Of a stretch of 64,000 bases of DNA, positions 1 through 64,000 are shown piece after piece (the stretch's first letter is position 1; every line of letters starts with the position of its first letter). The stretch covers positions 70,021 through 134,020 of the forward strand of contig CAZSUC010000001.1 of the NCBI GenBank assembly GCA_964610055.1, in the 5' to 3' direction. The stretch is from an uncultured Candidatus Saccharibacteria bacterium. Lineage in GTDB: Bacteria > Patescibacteriota > Andersenbacteria > UBA10190. The position numbers and the translations under genes were made by a program. The notes below the pieces were generated by a model. That model searched no databases and was not told the DNA's origin. It was given only the letters and a program-made list of their open reading frames with translations.

Positions 1-1763
1 TTTGCCAATTCTGCAGCCGCAGTTGAATATCCGCTCTGTTTTCGTGCAATTCCAGTCGTTGGTAGCTGAATTTTGTCAAACAGAATATAACGTAATTGCT
101 TAGTTGAATTGACATTAAACTCTTCTCCTGCCTGACTCCAAATCTCTTGCACTAATTTTTGCAATCTCGTTTCTACTTTTTTCTTTAGCCTCTCCAGCAC
201 TTCTCGATCTAATTTCACTCCCTCCAGCTCCATCGCCGCCAACACTGGCACTAATGGCACCTCTAACTCATTTAATACTATTCCTAATTTTTCTTCTTCA
301 ATTCTCACCGACAATTTCTTATACAGTTGCCATGCCACCCATGCATCTTCGGCCGCATAAGCCGCCACATCTTCTAGCGGCGCATTTAACAAACTTTTAT
401 TTTGATTATCCGTTCCAATTAAGTCAGTAATTGGAATACACGTATGTCCTAATTCAGTTAACGCAACCTCATCTAATCCATATTGTCTTTTCCCGGGATA
501 CAACACGTAACTAGCTAAGATTGAATCAAACGCAATCCCGCGTAACTCCACTCCTGCTTGTCGCATTACTTGCCAATCATATTTCAAATTATGTCCGGTT
601 TTTTTAATCCGACTGTCTTCTAATACATCCTTCCATTTTTTTGCGCTTTCTTGATCCACTGGTACATACCACGCTTCTACCTCTTCTGTCTCTCCTAGAA
701 ACGCAAAACTCATTCCTATTATCGGACTTACCCTGGCTCCTAATCCATCCGTTTCCGTGTCAAAAGCTATCATTGTTTGTCTTTTAAGTTTTCGATGTAA
801 TTCTTGCTCTAATGCCAATGTGTTTGCCAAACGCCAGCCCGACCACCGCTCTCTTGGCGACACTTTTTGCGTAATCGCTATATCCCTTTGCTCTTGCGGC
901 AATTTACTTACCAAACTTTTAAATCCCAACTCTAAAAACAGTGCCCGCGCTCGTTCAATATCATATTCTCCCCATCGAGACTCCTCCCAATCAATTTCTA
1001 ATGGAACATCTGTTCTAATTGTTGCTAAATCGCGACTAAAAACTGCTTGTTCTTCCTGGCCACGTAAACGTGTTTGTACTCGCTTAGGTAATTCGTCTAA
1101 ATGCTTAAAAACTTGTTCCAAAGCACCATACTGACCGATCAAATCCAGACTAGTTTTTTCTCCAATTCCTTTTACCCCCGGAATATTATCGCTTGTGTCT
1201 CCTCGCAACCCCTTAAAATCAACCATATTTTCCGGCCTAAATCCGTACTTCTCTTTAAATCTTTCTTTATTATAAATTTCCGCTTCTCCCACACCACGCT
1301 TTAACATATATACACCTACCGTCTCGCTAACTAACTGCAATTCATCCGCATCCCCCGTTACGATTACAACTTGCGCTTGCTGCTTCTCAGCCTGTTTAAC
1401 CAACGATCCAATCACATCATCAGCCTCAAACCCAGCCTGAAATTTTATTGGTATTCCTAAAACTTCTGCTACTTGTCGCACAATCTCAAACTGACTCACC
1501 AGCTCTGGCTCGGCCGACTTACGCTGTGCCTTATATTCCTCAAATTGAATATGCCGAAAAGTCGGCCCAGGCATATCAAAAGCAGCAATGACATAATCAG
1601 GTCGTAATTGCTGTACCACTTTTAATAAAGCTGTTACAAATCCATAAACCGCGTTCGTAGGCCGACCGTCCGGAGCATTCATCGGCGGTAAAGCATGATA
1701 AGCCCGGTGAATTAAAGCATGCGCATCTATTAACACTAATTTTCCCCTAACTTTATTCATCAT
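1..1763 (-). CDS. polA: DNA polymerase I, N-terminal 5'-3' exonuclease plus 3'-5' exo-like region; the C-terminal part continues beyond the window start
   Basis: Manual minus-strand translation from the ATG at about 1761-1763 gives MMNKVRGKLVLIDAHALIHRAYHALPP...GDTSDNIPGVKGIGEKT (FEN/5'-3' exo motifs). It is still in frame at position 3 (...QSGYSTAAAELA). The ORF is open to the window edge, so it is absent from the ORF track. Confidence 0.85.
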   Translation of the reverse strand, partial: MMNKVRGKLVLIDAHALIHRAYHALPPMNAPDGRPTNAVYGFVTALLKVVQQLRPDYVIAAFDMPGPTFRHIQFEEYKAQRKSAEPELVSQFEIVRQVAEVLGIPIKFQAGFEADDVIGSLVKQAEKQQAQVVIVTGDADELQLVSETVGVYMLKRGVGEAEIYNKERFKEKYGFRPENMVDFKGLRGDTSDNIPGVKGIGEKTSLDLIGQYGALEQVFKHLDELPKRVQTRLRGQEEQAVFSRDLATIRTDVPLEIDWEESRWGEYDIERARALFLELGFKSLVSKLPQEQRDIAITQKVSPRERWSGWRLANTLALEQELHRKLKRQTMIAFDTETDGLGARVSPIIGMSFAFLGETEEVEAWYVPVDQESAKKWKDVLEDSRIKKTGHNLKYDWQVMRQAGVELRGIAFDSILASYVLYPGKRQYGLDEVALTELGHTCIPITDLIGTDNQNKSLLNAPLEDVAAYAAEDAWVAWQLYKKLSVRIEEEKLGIVLNELEVPLVPVLAAMELEGVKLDREVLERLKKKVETRLQKLVQEIWSQAGEEFNVNSTKQLRYILFDKIQLPTTGIARKQSGYSTAAAELA

Positions 1764-2202
1764 TATTTCGCTTAATCATGATAATTCTTTGATCTTCTTG
1801 TTTACCATAATTAAACTTTATCCGACCAGTATATTTCCATCCTTTTGGCCACCGATTTCCCCACTCAATCATGGTTAACTTACCTTCTGCATCATCCCTA
1901 ATTGCTTGAACTGCCGGGTCAGTCGCAGCTTGTTGATCTGATAATCGATACAAATCTGCGTGCACTAATTTTTTAAATTTACTCTCAGTAAGTGGATATT
2001 CAGCCACAATATTAAAAGTCGGAGACGTCACTGGTTCTGCTATTTTTAATTCGCGCGCTATCGCTTGCACAAAACATGTTTTACCGCTACCCAGTTCTCC
2101 ATCTAACAACCAGATTTCTCCAGCCTGCGCTTCTCGCACAAATTGCGCTCCTTGAATCTGCATTTCCGCTACTCCTGATATTAATTTCATTCGCTTAACC
2201 AT
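1753..2202 (-). CDS. tsaE: tRNA threonylcarbamoyladenosine biosynthesis ATPase TsaE (YjeE family)
   Basis: P-loop GELGSGKT; 149 aa, typical TsaE size; overlaps the polA start. Confidence 0.75.
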   Translation of the reverse strand: MVKRMKLISGVAEMQIQGAQFVREAQAGEIWLLDGELGSGKTCFVQAIARELKIAEPVTSPTFNIVAEYPLTESKFKKLVHADLYRLSDQQAATDPAVQAIRDDAEGKLTMIEWGNRWPKGWKYTGRIKFNYGKQEDQRIIMIKRNNDE

Positions 2203-2983
2203 ACATTGCTAATAATCCCGCTAAAATCACTAAATAGATTGCAAATGGCGTTAAGGATATTCTTTCAATTAAACGCATAAATATACCGATCGCTGCCAGA
2301 CCACTTATAAACGCCATAAACAAACCAACACTTAACATTAATAGATCCTGTGATTGGTTTTGCTCTAATAAAGCTGGAACATGTGCCAAACCAGCCCCGG
2401 CAATAATTGGAGCTGACATCAAAAAAGAAAATTTAGCCGCTTGCTTACGACTCAGACCTCGCATTCTTCCTGCCGCCATCGTCATCCCTGATCGCGACAC
2501 TCCTGGTGCCAGCGCCAATACTTGGGCTAAGCCAATTATTACTGCGTCTTTCAAGGTAATATGTGACTTTCCTGTTTTTGCTAATGGCCACCGATCCATA
2601 ATCACTAATATCACCGCTGTTATCATCAATGCCCCAGCCAAAGATTTTGGTGAGCGAAACCATTCTTCTACTACCCCTTCAAAAGCATATCCCATTATAG
2701 CTGCCGGTACTGTTGCCACTGCCAAAGCTGCTATTAAACGCCTCTCTTTACTATCCATCCTTATATTCCACAATCCTTTCCCTAATTTCACCCACGTTCT
2801 CCAATAATAAGTTAACACTGCGCCCAGAGTGCCTAAATGCAGGATAGCATCAAACGCTACCCCACCTTCGTCAGAAATATGCAACCAAATTCGAGCCGCT
2901 AATAAGTGCCCACTCGAACTAACCGGCAAAAATTCCGTCAATCCTTGAATAATTGCCAAAATTATAACCTGACTAATAGTCAT
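2195..2983 (-). CDS. uppP: undecaprenyl-diphosphatase UppP/BacA
   Basis: Signature EFLPVSSSGHL near the N-terminus; polytopic, 262 aa. Confidence 0.85.
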   Translation of the reverse strand: MTISQVIILAIIQGLTEFLPVSSSGHLLAARIWLHISDEGGVAFDAILHLGTLGAVLTYYWRTWVKLGKGLWNIRMDSKERRLIAALAVATVPAAIMGYAFEGVVEEWFRSPKSLAGALMITAVILVIMDRWPLAKTGKSHITLKDAVIIGLAQVLALAPGVSRSGMTMAAGRMRGLSRKQAAKFSFLMSAPIIAGAGLAHVPALLEQNQSQDLLMLSVGLFMAFISGLAAIGIFMRLIERISLTPFAIYLVILAGLLAMYG

Positions 2984-3073
2984 ATTATCCTAAGCATAAT
3001 CGAATCTGTCATACTTTTGCACGCTTTCCCTCTTCACAACTATCCTCTCCCCCGCTAACATAAGAAGATTTAT

Positions 3074-4216
3074 ATGTCTCTACCAGAAACCCAACAAGCT
3101 CTTCAACTTATTCGACGTTCTCATAAAACCATGCTCGTTGTGCCTGAAAACACTTCAACTGATGCGCTTTCTTCTATGGTTGCCTTGTTTCTTGCCTTAC
3201 AAAACGATGACAACGACCATATTCACGAAATTAGCCCTCATCATATTCCCACTAATCTGCAATTCTTACCTGGCTCAAGTCAGGTGATGGTTAAACCACT
3301 TGCCCAACCTGAAATAATTCTAGACATTGCCTCTCCTTCTGGACAAACCGCTCAATTTCATACCACTTCCTTACAAGGTGGCGTGAAATTACATATTAGT
3401 CTCCCTGGTCACACTAACCTAACGCGCGATCAAATTGAGCTGTCAGTTCGCGCCCTGCCGTATGACCTTGTTATTACTTTTGGTGCTGAGGACTTAGAAA
3501 ATCTTGGCTCTCTTTTTTCTGACTATCCTGACTTTTTTTACAACACCCCTATCATCAACATCGACCATCGTGCTAGCAATGAACATTTTGGCACTGTTAA
3601 TTTAGTCGATCTAACCGCCGGATCCATCGCTGAAGTAACTTATAGCTTAATTGAGGCCCTTGGACCCAACACTATTGATTACCAGATTGCCACCGCACTC
3701 TATGCCGGTATTATCGCTGGCACCGATTCTTTTCAAAAACCATCAACCACTCCACGATCTTTTCAAATTGCTGCTCATCTTATTCAAAAAGAAGCTGATC
3801 GCGAAGCAGTCGTTCAGCATTTAGTCAAAACCAAGCCTCTCTCTTTACTGAAATTAACCGGCCGTCTTTATGCTCGATTACGCTATGACGAACATGCCCC
3901 TATGTTTTGGAGTCTAATTCGTACTCATGATTTTAATGAAAGCGGCGCCTCTCCTGCTGATATCCCGGCTGCCATGCACGAACTTTCTAATAACACTGCT
4001 GGCTATAGCGCTCTCTTCATAATCAGTGAACAATCCACCGGAACCTACGATCTTTTTCTTTCGCTGGGACCTGGATTATGGCGCCGTTCTCAGGATATTC
4101 AAACCGAACTCAGCGCTCAACGATATCACGGTCTCTTACGCGCTAGTTTATCTGCTCCTTCTCTCGAAGACGCCGAATCACAGGCTATCGAACAAATCCG
4201 CCATATCTTGGCTTAG
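3074..4216 (+). CDS. DHH/NrnA-like protein with degenerate catalytic motifs (probable inactive paralogue)
   Basis: ALYAGIIAGTDSFQK matches NrnA motif IV. The DHH motif is DHR (NIDHRASNEHFG). The N-terminal motif-I-like stretch (PENTSTDALSS) lacks the metal-binding His/Asp pair, and no GGGH was found. Confidence 0.45.
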   Translation: MSLPETQQALQLIRRSHKTMLVVPENTSTDALSSMVALFLALQNDDNDHIHEISPHHIPTNLQFLPGSSQVMVKPLAQPEIILDIASPSGQTAQFHTTSLQGGVKLHISLPGHTNLTRDQIELSVRALPYDLVITFGAEDLENLGSLFSDYPDFFYNTPIINIDHRASNEHFGTVNLVDLTAGSIAEVTYSLIEALGPNTIDYQIATALYAGIIAGTDSFQKPSTTPRSFQIAAHLIQKEADREAVVQHLVKTKPLSLLKLTGRLYARLRYDEHAPMFWSLIRTHDFNESGASPADIPAAMHELSNNTAGYSALFIISEQSTGTYDLFLSLGPGLWRRSQDIQTELSAQRYHGLLRASLSAPSLEDAESQAIEQIRHILA

Positions 4217-53515: not shown

Positions 53516-53603
53516 GGACAGGTCGCATAGCTGGTCGAGTGCGCCGCTCTCGAAAAGCGGTAGGGATGCAAGTCTCTCGTGGGTTCGAATCCCACCCTGT
53601 CCG
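53516..53603 (+). tRNA. tRNA-Ser (anticodon CGA), long variable arm
   Basis: Acceptor GGACAGG/CCTGTCC, anticodon stem CCGCT/AGCGG with loop CTCGAAA, variable arm about 18 nt, T-arm GTGGG TTCGAAT CCCAC. Confidence 0.75.
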
Positions 53604-53610
53604 CCTAAAA

Positions 53611-53644: not shown

Positions 53645-53762
<118 letters not shown>

Positions 53763-53991
53763 ATTAATAATTGCTATTATCAATACTCGAAGGTCCTAAT
53801 TTTCGAGTGAATATATTTGAAGATAACCAACTTAGTAACTAACGATAATACATCACTAGTCAAGTCAACATACGTTCATACAACTGGACCTATTAGTACG
53901 GATCGGCTCAACACATTACTGTGCTTACACCTTCCGCCTATCAACCTGGTCATCTTCCAGGGGTCTCATAATGAAACTTTATCTTAGAGTG

Positions 53992-54023
<32 letters not shown>

Positions 54024-54215
54024 ACCAGCCCGACTTAGCTACCCAGCCATGCTCCAGTAACGGAACAACTGGTACACCAGAGGTCGGTCCCTTCCGGTCC
54101 TCTCGTACTAGGAAGGACGCTCCTCAAGTTTCCACGCCTGCGACAGATAGGGTCCAACCTGTCTTGCGACGGTTTGAACCCAGCTCGCGTATCGCTTTCA
54201 TTGGCGAACAGCCAA

Positions 54216-54247
<32 letters not shown>

Positions 54248-54261
54248 GTGAGCCGACATCG

Positions 54262-54586
54262 CTGTCATTATCTTCTTGTTTCCAAAAAGCATAGACTATG
54301 CCTTCATCTCGGACAGTGCTTTAGACTGATGTGTCATAGCATCTGTTTTTTTACCGAGAGCCAGCCTTTTGCCCGCTTTTAAATCTTAATCTTCAAGCGA
54401 GCCTCCCCTTTCGGGTCAGTCGTTACGGGGCCTACATGTATGCAGGCTTCCCACGGTGTTGTCTTCTGTTCTAATGAACAGGTCAGAGTTCGCCGTTTTT
54501 AGCTGGTTTATATTTAATCTGTTTTATTTTCGAAAAGACTTTGGATCAGCACTCAAGGATCTCTCCTTGGGCACCCCGATATATTA
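54262..54586 (-). mobile_element. ORF-less group I intron (about 325 nt) in 23S between E. coli-equivalent U2500 and C2501
   Basis: Exon sequence GGCACCU|CGAUGUCGG is contiguous in E. coli 23S but here is split by 325 nt. The intron begins UAAUAUAUCGGGGUGCC; GGGUGCC can pair with the 5' exon GGCACCU (U-G at the splice site), forming P1. The intron ends in G. It contains an S-element-like GGCAUAGUCUAUGC. Confidence 0.75.
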
Positions 54587-54623
54587 AGGTGCCAAACCCC
54601 ACCGTCTATGTGGACTATTGGGT

Positions 54624-54660
<37 letters not shown>

Positions 54661-55139
54661 ATGATCTTCCGCTCTTCTACGTGAGAACGGTCGGTTCACT
54701 AAGCTCCACTTTCGTGTCTGCGCGACATGTACGTCTTGCAGTCAAGCCGGCTTATGCCTTTACACTCTAAAGCCCGATTTCCATCCGGGCTGAGCCGACC
54801 TTATAGGCTCCTCCGTTACAATTTGGGAGGAATCCGCCCCAGATAAACTACCCGCCAGGCACTGTCCGGGTGGTGGTTTCACACCACGTCGTTAGACGCG
54901 TCAAACATAAAGGGTGGTATCTCATTGTTGGCTCCGGTCCGTCCTAAGACAAACCATCATAGCCTCCCACCTATACTGAGCAACATGCTCGACGTGCCAA
55001 TACCAAGCTGTAGTGAAGCTCCACGGGGTCTTACCGTCTAGCCGCAGGGTGGCGGCATCTTTACCGACAATGCAATTTCGCCGGGTCCTTCGTTGAGACA
55101 GTTCTCCAGTCGTGACGCCATTCGTGCGGGACAGAACTT

Positions 55140-55893
55140 CATGTTCTAACCCTTTCTTTCGAAAGGCATAGACTATATTTTCATTCTCTAAAGCAAATTC
55201 AATATTTCCTGTAGATATATTTTTCTTTCCACGGAAACACTGAGCATATTGCTAGTTAGATCCAAAATTTCTCGCAATCCATCCCTTGTAAGATGGTTAC
55301 CGCGGGCAATGATTTTACATATGATTTTGAATTGTTCAAAATCGCGTTGTTTAGCAGATAAAAGTGGATACTTTTCAAAATGTGGAATTATTATCCTATT
55401 AATATCTTTGATACTACGCGTCTCATAATGAGCGGTCTTATCAGTTGATGAATAACGGATAGTGCCACATTGAAAGTAACTAAGCATAAGCTCAAGTACT
55501 TCTATTCTGTTTATCTTCTGCCCGACAGAGAAACTAGGACGTACCTCCCAGCCAACTAAGAGTTTAGGTCTCTTAACTATGGAGACGGAAAAACATCCTT
55601 CCCCATCAGTATAACCAGAGATATATGCTCTTAATTGTTGTTTGCTTTTTGAGAAGCCGGCGTCTGATAAAGATTGATGTATCATAATCTGATTCTCTAT
55701 CTCACTTTTGGCTAAGTGCTTGAGCACATTAGCGTTCAGATCAGTCGTTACGGGGTCAATCTGTTGTTGAAACAGACGACTTCCCACGGTATTACCCATG
55801 TCCATATTATAACATAATACGAACACTAGGGCTTCACCGTTATCAGCCGGATTCTTTAATTCATGGTCGCCCATGAATTCAGGCGAATTCTTC
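55140..55893 (-). mobile_element. group I intron (about 754 nt) in 23S after E. coli-equivalent U1951 (helix 69-71 region), carrying a homing endonuclease ORF
   Basis: Exon GGCAGGU|AAGUUCUGUCC matches E. coli GGGU1951|AAGUUCCGACC after removal. The 5' exon ends in U and the intron ends in G. IGS-like GCCUG occurs near the intron 5' end. An S-element-like AAAUAUAGUCUAUGCC occurs near the 3' end. Confidence 0.75.
55188..55685 (-). CDS. single-motif LAGLIDADG homing endonuclease encoded within the 23S intron
   Basis: The YISGYTDGEGCFSV LAGLIDADG motif starts about 23 aa after Met (MIHQSLSDAGF...), I-CreI-like spacing. The track ORF extends in frame upstream to a GTG at the exon boundary (55895), which is unlikely to be the real start. 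About 166 aa. Confidence 0.7.
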   Translation of the reverse strand: MIHQSLSDAGFSKSKQQLRAYISGYTDGEGCFSVSIVKRPKLLVGWEVRPSFSVGQKINRIEVLELMLSYFQCGTIRYSSTDKTAHYETRSIKDINRIIIPHFEKYPLLSAKQRDFEQFKIICKIIARGNHLTRDGLREILDLTSNMLSVSVERKIYLQEILNLL

Positions 55894-57026
55894 ACCTGCC
55901 AAGGAATTTCGCTACCATAGGACCGTTATAGTTACGGCCGGCGTTCATCGGCGCTTGGCCCCCCAGCTTGCACCAGGGGGATTAACGTTCCGACACTGGC
56001 CAGGCGTCAGCTCCTATACATACTCTTTCGAGTTCGCAGGAACCTGTGTTTTTGCTAAACAGTCGCTAGAGATCGTGCGCTGCGCCCGTCACAACCTTGC
56101 GGCTGCAACGGGAGCCCTTATTGCGAACTTACGGACGCTTTTTTGCCGAGTTCCTTAACGAAGGTTCTCCCGATCACCTTGGTACTCTTACACCAACCCA
56201 CCTGTGTCGGTTTGTGGTACGGGCGGCTAGACAGACGAATGAGTGACGCTTTTCCAGGAAGCTGCTTTCATACCGGAGGCTTGGTCTTGCGACCGCACTC
56301 TCCCGCATAACTTCGCCGTTTAAATTGGACACTCGGATTTACCTAAGTGTCCCGACTAATGTTATGCGCAGGATAAGTCATATGTCCTGTTTATTTCCGC
56401 AACTTCGTCACGCCCCTCAAACTGTCTAACCGGCGCAGGAATATCAACCTGCTGTCCATCGCCTACGCGTTTCCGCCTCGGCTTAGGCCCGGCTAACCCT
56501 GGGCTGATTTACATTGCCCAGGAAACCTTGGGTTTCCGGTGGCAGGGAATCTCACCCTGCTTATCGCTACTCATGCCACCATTCTCTCTTCCGTCCGCTC
56601 CACCGTGCCTCACAGCACGACTTCAACGCAAAGGCCATGTTCAAATAGAAATGGCCGGACGAAATGCTCGCCTACCAATCCGAACCTAATCGGTTCGGAC
56701 CCCGTGTCATCGGTACTTATCTTGAGCCCCGGTACATTATTCGGCGCAAGGTCGCTTGACGAGTGAGCTATTACGCTATCTTTAACAGATGGCTGCTTCT
56801 AAGCCAACTGCCTCGCTGTTTCAGCAACCTCACCACCTTAACCACTTAGATAAGATTCAGGGACCTTAGACTACGGTCTGGGCTGTTTCCCTTTTGAGCG
56901 CGGAGCTTAGCCCCCGCGTTCTGACTCCCGTGATTACGCCAATAGCATTCGGAGTTTGCTAGGGTCCCCCCGCTTGCGCGGGGAAGAGCCCTTGCAGCGC
57001 TCTACCACTATTGGTTACTACACGAG

Positions 57027-57062
<36 letters not shown>

Positions 57063-57442
57063 TGCCAGGTTCGATTGGAATTTCTCCGCTATCCACAAGT
57101 CATCCGATGGTATTGCACAGCCAAACGGTTCGGGCCTCCACGCAGTATTACCCGCGCTTCACCCTGCTCATGGATAGATCACCTGGTTTCGGGTCTCGTG
57201 CATGCTACTCTCTATCTAATTCTTCTCTCGTACTATCCTTGCGGACAGTCCGGAAAAGAAAAAGATAGAAACGCGCTATTAACACTCGCTTTCGCTCCGC
57301 CTACGCAATGTAATTGCTTAAGCAAAAGCAGCATACAGCGAACTCGGTGGCTCGTTCTGCAAAAAGCACGCCGTCACCCCACTTGCGTGGGGCTCCGACT
57401 CAATGTAGGTATGCGGTTTCAGGTCTATTTCATTCCCCTTCC

Positions 57443-57489
<47 letters not shown>

Positions 57490-58378
57490 ATGGTCGTATT
57501 TAGTCTTAGGAGGATCAATTGACCTGTGCTAAAAGCACAAGACAATTGATTGCATGTAGTTCTCCTTGCTTCAGACGGGATTTCACATGTCCCGCCGTAC
57601 TCAGGTTAATAGCAATCTTTTAAAACGTATCTTTCATATACGCGACTCTTACGCTCTTTGGTGGGGCATTCCAGCCGCCTTCTATTAGACAAACGTTTAT
57701 AAATGACTCGCGCTCCATAAACGCGCGAACGCTACTACCATCTACTCTCTCTTAGCAACGCTTTATGGGCTTACACTAAGAAAGTTTGGACTGTTCCCGT
57801 TTCGCTCGCCACTACTCAGGGAATATAATCACTATCTTCTTACCAGGAATTGCCTGTTCTCTTCTTACCTGTGACCTTGCGGTCTCCAGGAAAAAGAGAA
57901 CGGGATTCAAGATAGAAATAGTAATCGTTTTTTTCTTTTCCTCTGGCTACTAAGATGTTTCAGTTCGCCAGGTTCGCTCCACTTAAGCCTTGCAGCTTAA
58001 GGGTAACTTTGGGATGAACCAAAGTGGGTTTCCCCATTCGGACATCTGCGGATCAAAGGTTGCTCAGCACCTCCCCGCAGCTTATCGCAGCCGGCCGCGT
58101 CCTTCATCGCCGTCCATTGCCAAGGCATCCGCCGCATACCCTTACGGTGTATGACGTACCTAACTTGACTAGCGGTGTGTTACCGCTAAATCGCCTCTTG
58201 TTTATATATTATGTGATCGTTTTGAATTACTTTTGTCGGTTATCTTCACTATATTCAATTGGCAAAGTGCCGTCTTTTCTGTGTCTCAACCATACAAACC
58301 ACAGAAAAAAACCTTCAAGTTCTTTATCTGTGTCTTGTATGACTTAATCTGTTCGGGCCAAAAAGAAGGAGCTTCGGG

Positions 58379-58616: not shown

Positions 58617-59357
58617 CTACTTACTCTTATCTAAGAAGTCAGATTCGACTTTCTGTAGCCACTTCGCCGCCATATCTTTGCCTCCTAAGCCAAAGGCTAA
58701 GCCTCCAGCTAAGGCTGTCATTGCGAATAAAGCGGTTAATAAACTGTTGATTAAAGCCTCGGCAACCTTGAGCTGAATCAAAGCAGCCATTATTGCAAAA
58801 ATAATGATTGCCCACTTGCTCACTCCTGCGATTGCACCTCCGCTTGAAAAACCGGCAGCTTTAACACTGGCATTAACTGTCTTGGAGACAAAATTTGCCA
58901 GCACTACCGCGATGATCAAGATTAAAGCAGCAACAACTACGTTCGGTACATACGCCAACACTTGGCGCAAGAAACCTGATACGTCGTCTAGCCCCAAAAT
59001 ATCCGTTGCAGCCAACAAAGTTACTGCGATCAAGAACCATTTAATTACCTCGCCAAAAAGTCGAGGAATATTAACTTTCACGTTAGCGCGCGCTGCCGCA
59101 TTCTGCAGACCGGTCAAGTTATCAAAAGCCTGGTTTACGCGTAAAACCACTAACCCCTTTTCAATTAGACGACCCACTGCAACCGCTAGGGCCCAACCTA
59201 ATGAAAAGACTATTACAGCCGCAATCAAGTCAGGCAAAAATGTTATAAATTCATTCCACAATCCAGTGAGCGAACTTATAATAGCATCCCCCCAAGCCGA
59301 CACTGATCCTGAGCCTCCTCCGCTCGCAGCTTGTATATCATAAGGCATCACGCTCAC
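58617..59357 (-). CDS. membrane protein with repeated conserved TM-helix modules (MscS-associated TM_helix-like)
   Basis: 246 aa; repeated LPDLIAAVIVFSLGWALA...GRLIEKG / VPNVVVAALILIIAVVLANFVSK pattern; located inside the 16S-23S spacer. Confidence 0.4.
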   Translation of the reverse strand: MSVMPYDIQAASGGGSGSVSAWGDAIISSLTGLWNEFITFLPDLIAAVIVFSLGWALAVAVGRLIEKGLVVLRVNQAFDNLTGLQNAAARANVKVNIPRLFGEVIKWFLIAVTLLAATDILGLDDVSGFLRQVLAYVPNVVVAALILIIAVVLANFVSKTVNASVKAAGFSSGGAIAGVSKWAIIIFAIMAALIQLKVAEALINSLLTALFAMTALAGGLAFGLGGKDMAAKWLQKVESDFLDKSK

Positions 59358-59478
59358 CTCCTCTCAAGGAAATAATGAAGGATTTAACTCTTATTGGCCT
59401 AAACATACATCTTGCTTTTTGCTCTGTCAAAAAAGCGGGTTGCTGTCTTGCGACAACAACCCGTTCAAAACCAAAACA

Positions 59479-60120
59479 CTACTGGTTTTTCTTCCGAGCC
59501 AAGAATTCAAGCCCCTTGCCTACCTCAACGTTGATGGGAATCCCCTGCTTGCACAGCGGGCAATCTGCTTCATCCCAGGCGTCGAGCGTGACATTCGCCA
59601 GTGTGAACAGCTTTGGCACGTCTGCCAAATCCGCCGCCGTCACTCCTCCACGGTTGCAGAGAGCGCCAAGGCCAACCACCTCGCCTCCAACCGCTCTTAC
59701 GGCTTCCACTACCTTCCGAGCGGAACCGCCGGTCGTGAGCACGTCCTCTACTACCAGCACGCGCCTGCCGGTAATAAGTTTGTTGTACCCGCGCCTGATG
59801 ACGAATGTATCGCCAGCTTCTGATTTCTCGGAGTAAACGGCTAACACGTCTTTCCCGGAAGAAAGGGCGTAAGCTGTCCATTGGCTCAAGACCACGCCCC
59901 CGATAGCTGGGCCACACACCACTTGCACATTGTCGTTCGCGAAATTCGCTGCGATATGGCCGCAAAGCCACTCAGGGCACCGGGGGCGCACGTAAACCGC
60001 ATCCTTGTTGACGTATGCCGTACCATGCTTGCCCGACGTATACACGATATGGTCGCCGGTAATTACCGCTCCCACTTCGTGCAAAATCCGCAACACTTCT
60101 TCTGACGTAGATCCTGACAT
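59479..60120 (-). CDS. type I phosphoribosyltransferase (orotate PRTase-like)
   Basis: PRPP-binding motif VLVVEDVLTTGGSARK; 213 aa, the size of PyrE. About 60% GC versus about 42% in flanking DNA, which is why several overlapping stop-free ORFs appear on both strands. Confidence 0.6.
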   Translation of the reverse strand: MSGSTSEEVLRILHEVGAVITGDHIVYTSGKHGTAYVNKDAVYVRPRCPEWLCGHIAANFANDNVQVVCGPAIGGVVLSQWTAYALSSGKDVLAVYSEKSEAGDTFVIRRGYNKLITGRRVLVVEDVLTTGGSARKVVEAVRAVGGEVVGLGALCNRGGVTAADLADVPKLFTLANVTLDAWDEADCPLCKQGIPINVEVGKGLEFLARKKNQ

Positions 60121-60304
60121 AGGTCACCTCTGATTCAGTGCCTGATTGAAAGTACAAAACAGCCTGACCATCAAGCTGCTCCTGCCCTTAACTTAGGTAA
60201 TCAGCCTTAAATAGTCAAAACGCCCAGCGGGTGCCGTTTGTACAAAACGGCTCTGATCCCGCTGGGCTAAATCAGCCCCCAACCACACAGTAATCTTATA
60301 TCCG

Positions 60305-60375
60305 TGGACCTGAGGAGAATCGAACTCCTATCTCCCGGATGCAAACCGGGTGCTCTGCCACTAAGCTACAGGCCC
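60305..60375 (-). tRNA. tRNA-Ala (anticodon TGC)
   Basis: Acceptor GGGCCTG/CAGGTCC (G-U), anticodon stem CCCGG/CCGGG with loop TTTGCAT, T-arm GGAGTTCGATTCTCC. Confidence 0.8.
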
Positions 60376-60423
60376 TTCTAACCGTAATCTCACTGTACTG
60401 ACCCTTTTCAGTTTGTCAAAACC

Positions 60424-60672
60424 CTAGTCCCCGCCTACTCCAAATAAAAACAAAACTCTTTGAATAAACAGATTATACAAATCAAATGCCAGCATAAAAC
60501 CGCCAAAAATCAAAAATGTCCCAAATACTTTCCATGACATCCACCGCGCATTAACCGCTCCGAATATCTCGCTTATGTCTCCAAAATTTCGCAGCATCAT
60601 ATCTGTATATCTTACGCATATATATCCAGCTGCCATAATAAGCGCTCCTAAAATAAATAGTCCAAAGCTCAT
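60424..60672 (-). CDS. small hypothetical membrane protein (82 aa, two predicted TM helices)
   Basis: Hydrophobic segments flank a short loop; no family recognised; sits between the cca gene and tRNA-Ala. Confidence 0.35.
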   Translation of the reverse strand: MSFGLFILGALIMAAGYICVRYTDMMLRNFGDISEIFGAVNARWMSWKVFGTFLIFGGFMLAFDLYNLFIQRVLFLFGVGGD

Positions 60673-60690
60673 TTCCGTATTCTAACACAC

Positions 60691-62163
60691 TTATACATGA
60701 TATTTCCCCCGAATTTCGTTTTCACGGCGCTTTTCTTCTTCTTCTTTGGCTGCTTCGCCTAATCTCTTTAATTCCTCCGGATCTTTGTCTTTGAGTTTTT
60801 CTGCTTCTTTTATTAAATATTCCCGTGTATTTTTAAGTGGATCATTTAACACTTGAGCCAATAACGCGTTTAAAATACCGCCAATTTGCGGGCTTGGTTT
60901 TAGACCTAAGTCTGTCATTAAATCTTTGCCATTAATTGCCAACTGGTTCACCGTCACTGGTTCACTCGCCGCTTTTTCTACCAGAAATTGCAGATGACGC
61001 AAACGATACGGCTCTGCTTTTGGCACCCCCGATCCTTTGCGTTCCGCAATCCGCAATTTTATTAAATCATCGAAATTTTCTTGGCCTACTCGTCGCAATA
61101 ATCGGCGCGCGCCCGCTTCTGTCACTTTGCCAATATCATAGTAAAACATATGGTGTCTTACTAAATGAGTAACTTGCTTTATAAAATCATTTGAGAATCG
61201 CAATCGCTTTAATATGTTTTCTGTCATTTTTGCGCTCACAACATCATGTCCATAAAACGTATATTCACTTCCCTTGCGTCTGCGCGTGCGTGGTTTGCCA
61301 ACATCATGCAATAACGCCGCCCACCGCACCTGCGGCACATATTCATATTGAGCCGCAAATTGCAGTGACTTTATTAAATGAGTAAAAACATCATATTTAT
61401 GGTGCAAATTTTGCTCAATCCCTACTCCTTCTGCTAACTCTGGCATAATCTCTTGAAGCAATCCTGACTGTTGCAGCATTGCTAAACCGCTTTCCGGATG
61501 ATCACTCCCAATAATTTTATTTAATTCATCTCTAATTCGTTCTTGTGAAACTACTTTTATATTCCCGCTCATCGCACACAAACTATTCCAAGTCTCTTGC
61601 TCTATTTCAAAGTCTAATTGTGTTGCTAATCGAACCGCGCGCAATAAGCGCAAAGCATCTTCTTCAAACCTTTCTTTTGGATTTCCAACCGCTCTGATTT
61701 TTTGATCATGTAAATCTTTAATGCCGCCAAAATGGTCAATAATTGCCAGGCCATCAATAATAACGCTATTCGGTTGAGGCGCTGTTTCTGTGTTGGCCGC
61801 TAATGCGTTAATTGTAAAATCTCGCCGCGACAAATCCTCGGTCAAAGAAGTCGTAAAATCAACTTTATCCGGATGCCGTTGATCGCTGTATTGTCCCTCT
61901 GTGCGATAAGTTGTAACTTCAATCTCTTTTAATGACTCATCAAGTGTGTCATTTAACACACTTACCGTTCCAAACTTATTTTTATAAAAACTCTTAGGTA
62001 AAGCTTTTTGAATTTCATCTGGAGTTGCATTAGTTGTCACGTCCCAATCATGTGGAGTTCGTCCCAATAACAAATCCCGCACGCATCCACCCACAGCGTA
62101 GGCTTCAAAGCCTGCTTTTTGTAATGTCGCGATTACTGTTTGTACTTCAACCGGAATCGTCAT
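60691..62163 (-). CDS. cca: CCA-adding tRNA nucleotidyltransferase with HD domain
   Basis: Pol-beta head GGCVRDLLLGRTPHDWDV; HD motif LLHDVGKP; 490 aa. Confidence 0.8.
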   Translation of the reverse strand: MTIPVEVQTVIATLQKAGFEAYAVGGCVRDLLLGRTPHDWDVTTNATPDEIQKALPKSFYKNKFGTVSVLNDTLDESLKEIEVTTYRTEGQYSDQRHPDKVDFTTSLTEDLSRRDFTINALAANTETAPQPNSVIIDGLAIIDHFGGIKDLHDQKIRAVGNPKERFEEDALRLLRAVRLATQLDFEIEQETWNSLCAMSGNIKVVSQERIRDELNKIIGSDHPESGLAMLQQSGLLQEIMPELAEGVGIEQNLHHKYDVFTHLIKSLQFAAQYEYVPQVRWAALLHDVGKPRTRRRKGSEYTFYGHDVVSAKMTENILKRLRFSNDFIKQVTHLVRHHMFYYDIGKVTEAGARRLLRRVGQENFDDLIKLRIAERKGSGVPKAEPYRLRHLQFLVEKAASEPVTVNQLAINGKDLMTDLGLKPSPQIGGILNALLAQVLNDPLKNTREYLIKEAEKLKDKDPEELKRLGEAAKEEEEKRRENEIRGKYHV

Positions 62164-62190
62164 ATTAACCAGTATACATCCTTCCTACAG

Positions 62191-62264
62191 TGGGCACGCC
62201 TGGGCTCGAACCAGGGACCTCTTCATTATCAGTGAAGTGCTCTAGCCAGCTGAGCTACGTGCCC
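62191..62264 (-). tRNA. tRNA-Ile (anticodon GAT)
   Basis: Acceptor GGGCACG/CGTGCCC + A, anticodon stem CTTCA/TGAAG with loop CTGATAA, T-arm CCTGGTTCGAGCCCAGG. Confidence 0.85.

Positions 62265-62510: not shown

Positions 62511-64000
<1,490 letters not shown>

Follow-up and report, generated by a model that had tools for sequence, protein, structure and literature searches.

Group I introns in the 23S genes of bacteria were described earlier at sites 1917, 1931, 1951 and 2593. Those of Coxiella (L1917 and L1951), of Thermotoga and Simkania (L1931) and of cyanobacteria (L1931 and L2593) lie, as does the intron reported here, in domains IV and V of the bacterial 23S, but none of them is found at site 2500 and most have an endonuclease gene. 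In the chloroplasts of green algae site 2500 is occupied, for instance by the I-ChuI intron of Chlamydomonas humicola. Another chloroplast intron of this site, Ft.rrl.6 in the rrl gene of Floydiella terrestris, belongs to subgroup IB, measures 381 bp and has no ORF (PMC2997540, Table 4). Insertions in the rRNA of CPR bacteria were first noted by Brown et al. in 2015 and were surveyed by Tsurumaki et al. (2024, J Bacteriol; PMC11270868), who found insertions in 82% of CPR 23S genes and classed 433 as group I introns, 222 of them ORF-less, clustered around the peptidyl-transferase centre and present at several sites previously unreported in other bacteria. According to the same work the rRNA insertions are removed from the transcripts (PMC11270868).

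In the present work we characterized an insertion in the 23S gene found in a 64,000-nucleotide stretch of DNA, the whole of which is called here the window. With the CPR introns of the survey it has in common a host of the Parcubacteria type, the gene, the location in domain V within the cluster around the peptidyl-transferase centre, a match to the Intron_gpI model with a small E-value in cmscan, and the presence of LAGLIDADG-bearing introns in the same gene. It is a further ORF-less group I intron of the kind already catalogued in CPR 23S, one more among the many group I introns documented around the peptidyl-transferase centre of CPR bacteria. Sites 23IS9-11 of the survey, which are given without coordinates, may include site 2500 (PMC11270868); a literature search for a group I intron under 'L2500' or 'position 2500' gave no match. 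The green-algal introns sit by E. coli numbering at the same insertion site as that of the window, and an ORF-less form exists there too, whereas Ft.rrl.6 is of subgroup IB and the window intron of subgroup IA, a comparison made at the level of the subgroup.

The insertion and its host gene

The insertion lies in an rRNA operon carried by the minus strand of the window, as are all the window features given below unless stated otherwise. This operon comprises the 16S (62513-64000, clipped by the window edge), tRNA-Ile (62190-62264), tRNA-Ala (60304-60375), the 23S that hosts the insertion (53871-58156) and the 5S (53645-53761). The 23S is long, with 4286 nt against the 2925 positions of the bacterial model. 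Protein genes are present in the 16S-23S spacers (58617-62163): a PolyA_pol/HD nucleotidyltransferase of the CCA-adding type (60691-62163) and an 82-aa ORF (60424-60672) between the two tRNAs, then a phosphoribosyltransferase-domain protein (59479-60120) and a mechanosensitive-channel-like membrane protein (58617-59357) between tRNA-Ala and 23S. Downstream of the 5S, a tRNA-Ser(CGA) gene on the plus strand (53516-53605) adjoins the operon and converges on it. Three other segments of the 23S (about 57825-57931, 57603-57787 and 57196-57341) have no E. coli match by blastn and represent about 100, 85 and 66 extra nt near E. coli 223-233, 270-369 and 589-668. No group I match was found in these three segments; each could represent an insertion of the IVS type or a helix particular to the lineage.

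In its 3' part the 23S shares 88% identity with a Ca. Andersenbacteria contig (L062, MHHP01000020) and with the metagenome duplicate of that contig (L080), and the gene order downstream of the 5S is syntenic with L062. Ca. Andersenbacteria are classified in the Parcubacteria group of the Patescibacteria, and 23S similarity and synteny to this contig, the two features used for placing the host, point to a Parcubacteria-group CPR/Patescibacteria bacterium.

An earlier note on this DNA had described a second, ORF-less group I intron interrupting for 325 nt the conserved block that begins with GGCACCU, at the site equivalent to U2500, and each of these points was borne out. Read on the minus strand, the locus is ...GGUUUGGCACCU / UAAUAUAUCGGGGUGCC ... 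GAUAAUGACAG / CGAUGUCGGCUCAC. Alignment with E. coli rrlH by blastn puts E. coli 2500 at window position 54587 and E. coli 2501 at 54261, and the insertion is therefore exactly 54262-54586, or 325 nt, between the equivalents of U2500 and C2501 (site L2500). Since the E. coli sequence GGCACCTCGATGTCGG begins at 2494, the break falls after U2500. The Rfam LSU model picks up at its position 2527 (CGAUGUC), directly after the insert. Excision of the 325 nt rebuilds GGCACCU|CGAUGUCGG, and a single placement of the junction is possible for rebuilding GGCACCUCGAUGUC. The 5' exon thus delimited ends with the 7 nt GGCACCU (54587-54593), which are the 5' strand of P1 in the MFE fold and whose U (54587) is the splice-site U, while the 3' exon starts with the 6 nt CGAUGU (54256-54261), the exon strand of P10, corresponding to E. 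coli 2501-2506 and including A2503. The insertion contains no ORF of at least 50 aa; the longer ones listed, of 72 and 85 aa, clip only the 3' part of the intron and continue into the 3' exon. The other group I intron of this 23S, relative to which the present one was called second, is located between E. coli 1951 and 1952 and is described further on.

Anatomy of the ribozyme and covariation

An Infernal scan, proposed in the earlier note as a check, aligned the full Rfam model RF00028 Intron_gpI (positions 1-253) to 54272-54597 with a score of 41 bits and an E-value of 3.5e-8 (cmscan). This alignment places P1, P2, P3, P4, P5, P6, P8 and P9. The curated gathering score of Intron_gpI, 50 bits, was not reached, but it is the threshold of one model and not a structural definition of a group I intron, and much of the lost score is explained by P7.1, P7.2 and the P2-P3 linker, long insertions which are missing from the model. 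The minimum free energy of the intron is -111 kcal/mol, versus -77.4 ± 5.1 in shuffles (z = -6.6), and the unaided MFE fold recovers P1, P2, P3, P4, P5/P5a, P6, P7.1, P7.2 and P8.

The internal guide sequence GGGUGCC (54570-54576), found as the 3' strand of P1 in both the Intron_gpI alignment and the MFE fold, is the exact complement of the exon end GGCACCU with a U·G pair (54587/54576) at the splice site, just as the earlier note had read it. Directly 5' of the guide, AUAUCG (54577-54582) pairs over 6 bp with the 3' exon CGAUGU. This P10 pairing was absent from the earlier note and strengthens the group I case. P2 is a hairpin with a GNRA loop (CAAGGA-GAGA-UCCUUG, 54554-54569) which folds and in which all six pairs covary among homologues; it is followed by a variable A/U-rich linker to P3 (54507-54553), with a possible P2.1 and folds that disagree between homologues. 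P3 is formed by CCAGCU (54501-54506) and GGCUGG (54361-54366), both strands being identified by the Intron_gpI alignment, the MFE fold and the pair count. The P4-P5 domain (54453-54496; Intron_gpI alignment, segment and MFE folds, pair count) consists of P4 (ACGGCG/CACCGU, with one C·A mismatch in the window copy), P5 (UCU/AGA) and the P5a hairpin (CUGUUC-AUUA-GAACAG). P6 (GG/CC) and the P6a hairpin GCCUGCA-UACA-UGUAGGC occupy 54428-54452, where the ORF-bearing relatives have their LAGLIDADG_2 gene.

The 5' strand of P7, GACUG (54417-54421; Intron_gpI alignment), is inside the conserved block CCCCGUAACGACUGA, and its 3' strand, UAGUC (54294-54298), is part of the motif AUAGUCUAUGC and is preceded by J8/7, UGAAGGCA (54299-54306). 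The G-C pair of this helix is presumably the guanosine-binding site. Two further hairpins, P7.1 (CCC-GAAA-GGG, 54406-54415) and P7.2 (GCUCGCUU...AAGCGGGC, 54371-54402), appear in segment and MFE folds, the six counted pairs of the latter all covarying. P8 (UCUCGG...CCGAGA, with an inner extension, 54307-54359) is given by the Intron_gpI alignment, the folds and the pair count, and P9, again a hairpin with a GNRA loop (CUUUUUG-GAAA-CAAGAAG, 54272-54289), by the Intron_gpI alignment, the segment folds and the pair count. The intron closes with the 10-nt tail AUAAUGACAG, which ends in ...GACAG as previously read and whose last base is the omega-G (54262). The helix order is P3-P4-P5-P4'-P6-P7-(P7.1, P7.2)-P3'-P8-P7'-P9, as the P3/P7 pseudoknot demands. 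Failure of the P3-P7 core to fold had been named in the earlier note as evidence that would count against an intron; the core does fold, and with compensatory changes in the homologues of other genomes. P7.1 and P7.2 lie between the 5' strand of P7 and the 3' strand of P3, and this pair of additional hairpins is what we take to mark subgroup IA (Michel-Westhof). By these two hairpins the window intron belongs to subgroup IA, an assignment made at the IA level only.

Homologues were searched in 185,579 species genomes with the exon-plus-guide pattern GGTTTGGCACCTN{2,25}GGGTGCC. Two of the 78 loci that matched are 23S genes with an insertion at site 2500, one of Ca. Levybacteria (L025, with a 500-nt intron) and one of Ca. 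Andersenbacteria (L062, with a 900-nt intron); L022, also among the 78, is a 23S sequence without an intron at this site. A metagenome scan added L081 and L090 (303 nt), L082 and L084 (354 nt) and L089 (330 nt), along with duplicates of L025 and L062 and one cut copy. The window's own intron sequence was not returned by the pattern scans of the genome and metagenome collections. The pattern is blind to relatives whose guide ends in U (GGGGTGCT), and those were found via their protein. All the L2500 introns found by the pattern scans are at the same site and have in common the blocks AACGGYG, ACCGWGRG, GUAWCGACUG and AAGGNAUAGUC. The conserved anchors are present in five other full-length introns, and most of them also in four further ORF-bearing relatives. 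Over exons and intron the window copy is about 81% identical to L082 and to L081/L090. The P1 guide GGGUGCC is identical in the five full-length homologues counted, and reads GGGUGCU in the other relatives, those found through the endonuclease.

A plain MAFFT alignment of the six introns misaligned P7.2, P3' and P8 in the distant L089 and L025 and was replaced. The six introns were cut at the conserved anchors and each segment was folded separately. The same set of hairpins, with differing stem sequences, was obtained in all six, including the GNRA loops on P2 and P9 and the P7.1 and P7.2 hairpins. Pairs were then counted on a stitched alignment of the helix strands of the six introns, in which the linkers are constant and artificial (non-biological sequence). 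Standard pairs fill 99.4% of the 312 cells versus 80.2% in shuffles, and changes on both sides are seen in 31 of the 52 pairs versus 14.9 ± 2.6 in shuffles; none of 500 shuffles reached the observed pairing and covariation. Sliding the partner strand by 1-3 columns dropped the pairing to 33-47%.

Because the strands of P2, P7.2, P8 and P9 come from each sequence's own fold, pairing there is partly obtained by construction, and the informative point for these helices is that one of different sequence stands at the same place in each intron. The cleaner covariation evidence is that of the anchor-defined core helices P3, P4, P5 and P6, which hold 7 of the 31 compensatory pairs. Overall, both-side changes support P3, P4, P5, P6 and P8. 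P7 is invariant and complementary among the homologues, so that covariation neither supports nor contradicts it. P10 is kept in six of six introns, as AUAUCG, GCAUCG or ACAUUG facing an invariant exon.

Endonuclease-bearing relatives and the neighbouring intron

In the L062 intron, the P6 loop contains the gene for a 195-aa LAGLIDADG_2 protein (E 1.7e-41), whose closest solved relative is I-SceI. A protein collection holds 1793 relatives of this protein at E ≤ 1e-5, some of which are labelled by their sources as Patescibacteria or Peregrinibacteria. All four homologues located on contigs, one of which (L091) is cut at its 5' side, are encoded by insertions ending at E. coli 2500|2501 of 23S. 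In the three introns that yielded both anchor motifs (L062, L091 and L092), the ORF occupies the long stretch that separates the 3' strand of P4 from the 5' strand of P7.

These ORF-bearing CPR introns, such as those of L062 (MHHP01000020) and of Ca. Peregrinibacteria (L092, JACPMA010000001), share with the window intron its site, the guide and P10 sequence UAAYAUAUCGGGGUGCY and the blocks AACGGYG, ACCGUGGG and GUAACGACUG. L062 moreover has AAGGCAUAGUC, the same P7.1 (CCCGAAAGGG) and the GNRA loop on P9. They differ by their length of 800-900 nt and by an endonuclease gene of 188-225 aa in the P6 loop; the window intron has 325 nt, no remnant of such a gene, and a P6 that closes in a loop of 4 nt. 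The natural reading is that the window intron belongs to a mobile L2500 family whose other members encode I-SceI-like LAGLIDADG_2 proteins, and represents its ORF-less state.

In two of the ORF-bearing L2500 introns (L093 at 2245 and L094 at 2201), the base before the 3' exon CGATGTCGG is an A instead of a G. They are either natural omega-A introns or the product of a boundary or assembly problem.

The other group I intron of the window's 23S (55140-55893, 754 nt) interrupts E. coli 1951|1952. Coxiella has an intron at this site (L1951) that likewise encodes a LAGLIDADG protein; here the protein is of the LAGLIDADG_1 type (E 9.5e-27). Its ORF occupies the P8 loop, past the P3 3' strand. The GTG listed as the start (55895) falls within the 5' exon, 2 nt before the first base of the intron; the ORF as listed probably reaches too far, and near 55684 there is an ATG in the same frame.

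The earlier note had also pointed out a motif common to the two introns of the window and seen in it a sign of the same subgroup or of a common origin. The motif, AUAGUCUAUGC, is indeed present in each (minus strand 54289-54299 and 55166-55176). It covers the 3' strand of P7 with the beginning of J7/9, which is the classical 'S' element of group I introns. This element alone says little about a common origin of group I introns. Two further blocks, CCCCGUAACGACUGA (J6/7 with the 5' strand of P7) and ACCGUGGGAAG, are common to both introns, and the three blocks taken together indicate that the two are of the same type. Comparison of the two cores, also suggested in the note, showed a similarity confined to AUAGUCUAUGC, CCCCGUAACGACUGA and ACCGUGGGAAG. 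A recent duplication of the L1951 intron within the gene was considered and rejected, because the L2500 introns of other organisms align with the window intron over their full length (about 81% for L082) and the neighbour does so at the core blocks only.

Two metagenome contigs, L081 and L090, have the L2500 intron and lack the one at L1951. In L090, an insertion of about 300 nt (1192-1498) is found near E. coli 2657, with a core 73% identical over 115 nt to that of the window's L1951 intron, which suggests that one intron type has spread over several CPR 23S sites.

Proposed splicing, alternative explanations and origin

We consider it very probable that 54262-54586 is a group I intron of subgroup IA which interrupts the gene after the U2500 equivalent and is spliced by the standard pathway. 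In the precursor, the guide GGGUGCC and the exon end GGCACCU would form P1, in which the U·G pair designates the 5' splice site. The attack after U2500 would come from a free guanosine held by the G-C pair of P7. AUAUCG would hold the 3' exon CGAUGU in P10 while the terminal G enters the guanosine site, and the freed 3'-OH of U2500 would then attack after this G. The exons would be joined into the normal strand of the peptidyl-transferase loop, including A2503-U2506, and the 325-nt intron would be released. Kept in every homologue, the GNRA loops of P2 and P9 probably stabilize the core through the customary long-range contacts, and catalysis would proceed without a protein helper. The ribosomes of this organism would then depend on splicing of the L2500 intron.

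What we propose has to be weighed against the idea of a group I intron by descent that is now retained in mature 23S as an expansion beside the peptidyl-transferase centre. There would be a precedent in the L1931 intron of Simkania, which Everett is said to have published in 1999 as an unspliced 23S group I intron, and the C·A mismatch in P4 of the window copy and the score below the Rfam gathering threshold also speak for retention. However, P1, P10, the omega-G and all the core helices are intact and kept by compensatory changes across lineages, and the maintenance of the splice pairings in this way indicates selection for splicing. A retained segment of 325 nt within the universally conserved GGCACCU|CGAUGUCGG (A2503-U2506) would moreover be hard to square with function, and rRNA insertions of CPR bacteria are reported to be removed from the transcripts (PMC11270868). 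We therefore judge retention very unlikely. Lower still, close to negligible, is the probability we give to an IVS which is cut out by RNase III without religation and leaves a fragmented 23S. Excision of this kind occurs at other 23S sites in many bacteria, short IVS-type insertions are known at other sites of CPR 23S, and the gene of the window itself contains other extra segments that are not introns. But the present insert has no long stem joining its ends and shows instead a complete group I core with guide pairings, and fragmentation fits poorly with the removal reported for the CPR insertions (PMC11270868).

A milder departure from the standard reading, to which we still attach only a small probability, is that of a true intron needing a protein helper in vivo, which could be a host factor or, in the role of a maturase, the LAGLIDADG protein encoded at L1951. 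The mismatch in P4 could call for such assistance, many LAGLIDADG proteins also serve as maturases, and the L1951 intron has core blocks in common with that of L2500. Against this, L081 and L090 contain the L2500 intron without the L1951 intron, and the L1951 protein is therefore no general requirement for L2500 splicing; furthermore, the usual stabilizing periphery is complete (GNRA loops of P2 and P9, P7.1 and P7.2). Splicing by the standard pathway of an IA intron remains the explanation that we retain. For annotation it means that this 23S must be spliced at two places before alignment, phylogeny or modelling, and that 'expansion segment' would be the wrong label for the 325 nt.

Homing by an endonuclease of its own does not apply to the window intron, which contains no ORF of at least 50 aa. 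In the absence of an endonuclease gene, vertical inheritance or acquisition through the endonuclease of a related copy is most likely, and the intron can presumably no longer home on its own. As to the direction of change, between an endonuclease lost and one never gained, we infer a loss. Together with its ORF-bearing relatives, the window intron illustrates the life cycle of a homing intron, from invasion through loss of the endonuclease to persistence of the ribozyme. Taken alone, it raises no new question.

The CPR family is of type IA according to P7.1 and P7.2 and Ft.rrl.6 of type IB, so that an independent invasion of site 2500 is possible. A wider scenario can be drawn from this, which we put forward as tentative and on balance doubtful: the IA lineage of CPR would have colonized L2500 independently of the IB introns of chloroplasts, one IA core would have spread to 1951, 2500 and about 2657 by exchange of guide and endonuclease, and L093 and L094 would be genuine omega-A introns. 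If this were true, unrelated ribozymes would have made one universally conserved 23S sequence their target on at least two occasions, and L093 and L094 would add natural omega-A introns to the single case of Coxiella.

Two minor observations concern other relatives. The P6 region of the Levybacteria intron (L025, 1601-2100, minus strand) is enlarged by an insertion of some 135 nt that consists of short CAGTTTTC/CGGTTTTC-like repeats without an ORF and may represent what is left of an endonuclease gene after decay, or else an expansion of repeats. The Peregrinibacteria contig L092 carries, at 431-3288, three endonuclease-bearing insertions in a row in one 23S gene, near E. coli 2450 (LAGLIDADG_2), at 2500 (LAGLIDADG_2) and near 2594-2612 (LAGLIDADG_1), and the site near 2450 is, we presume, that of the yeast omega intron and I-SceI.
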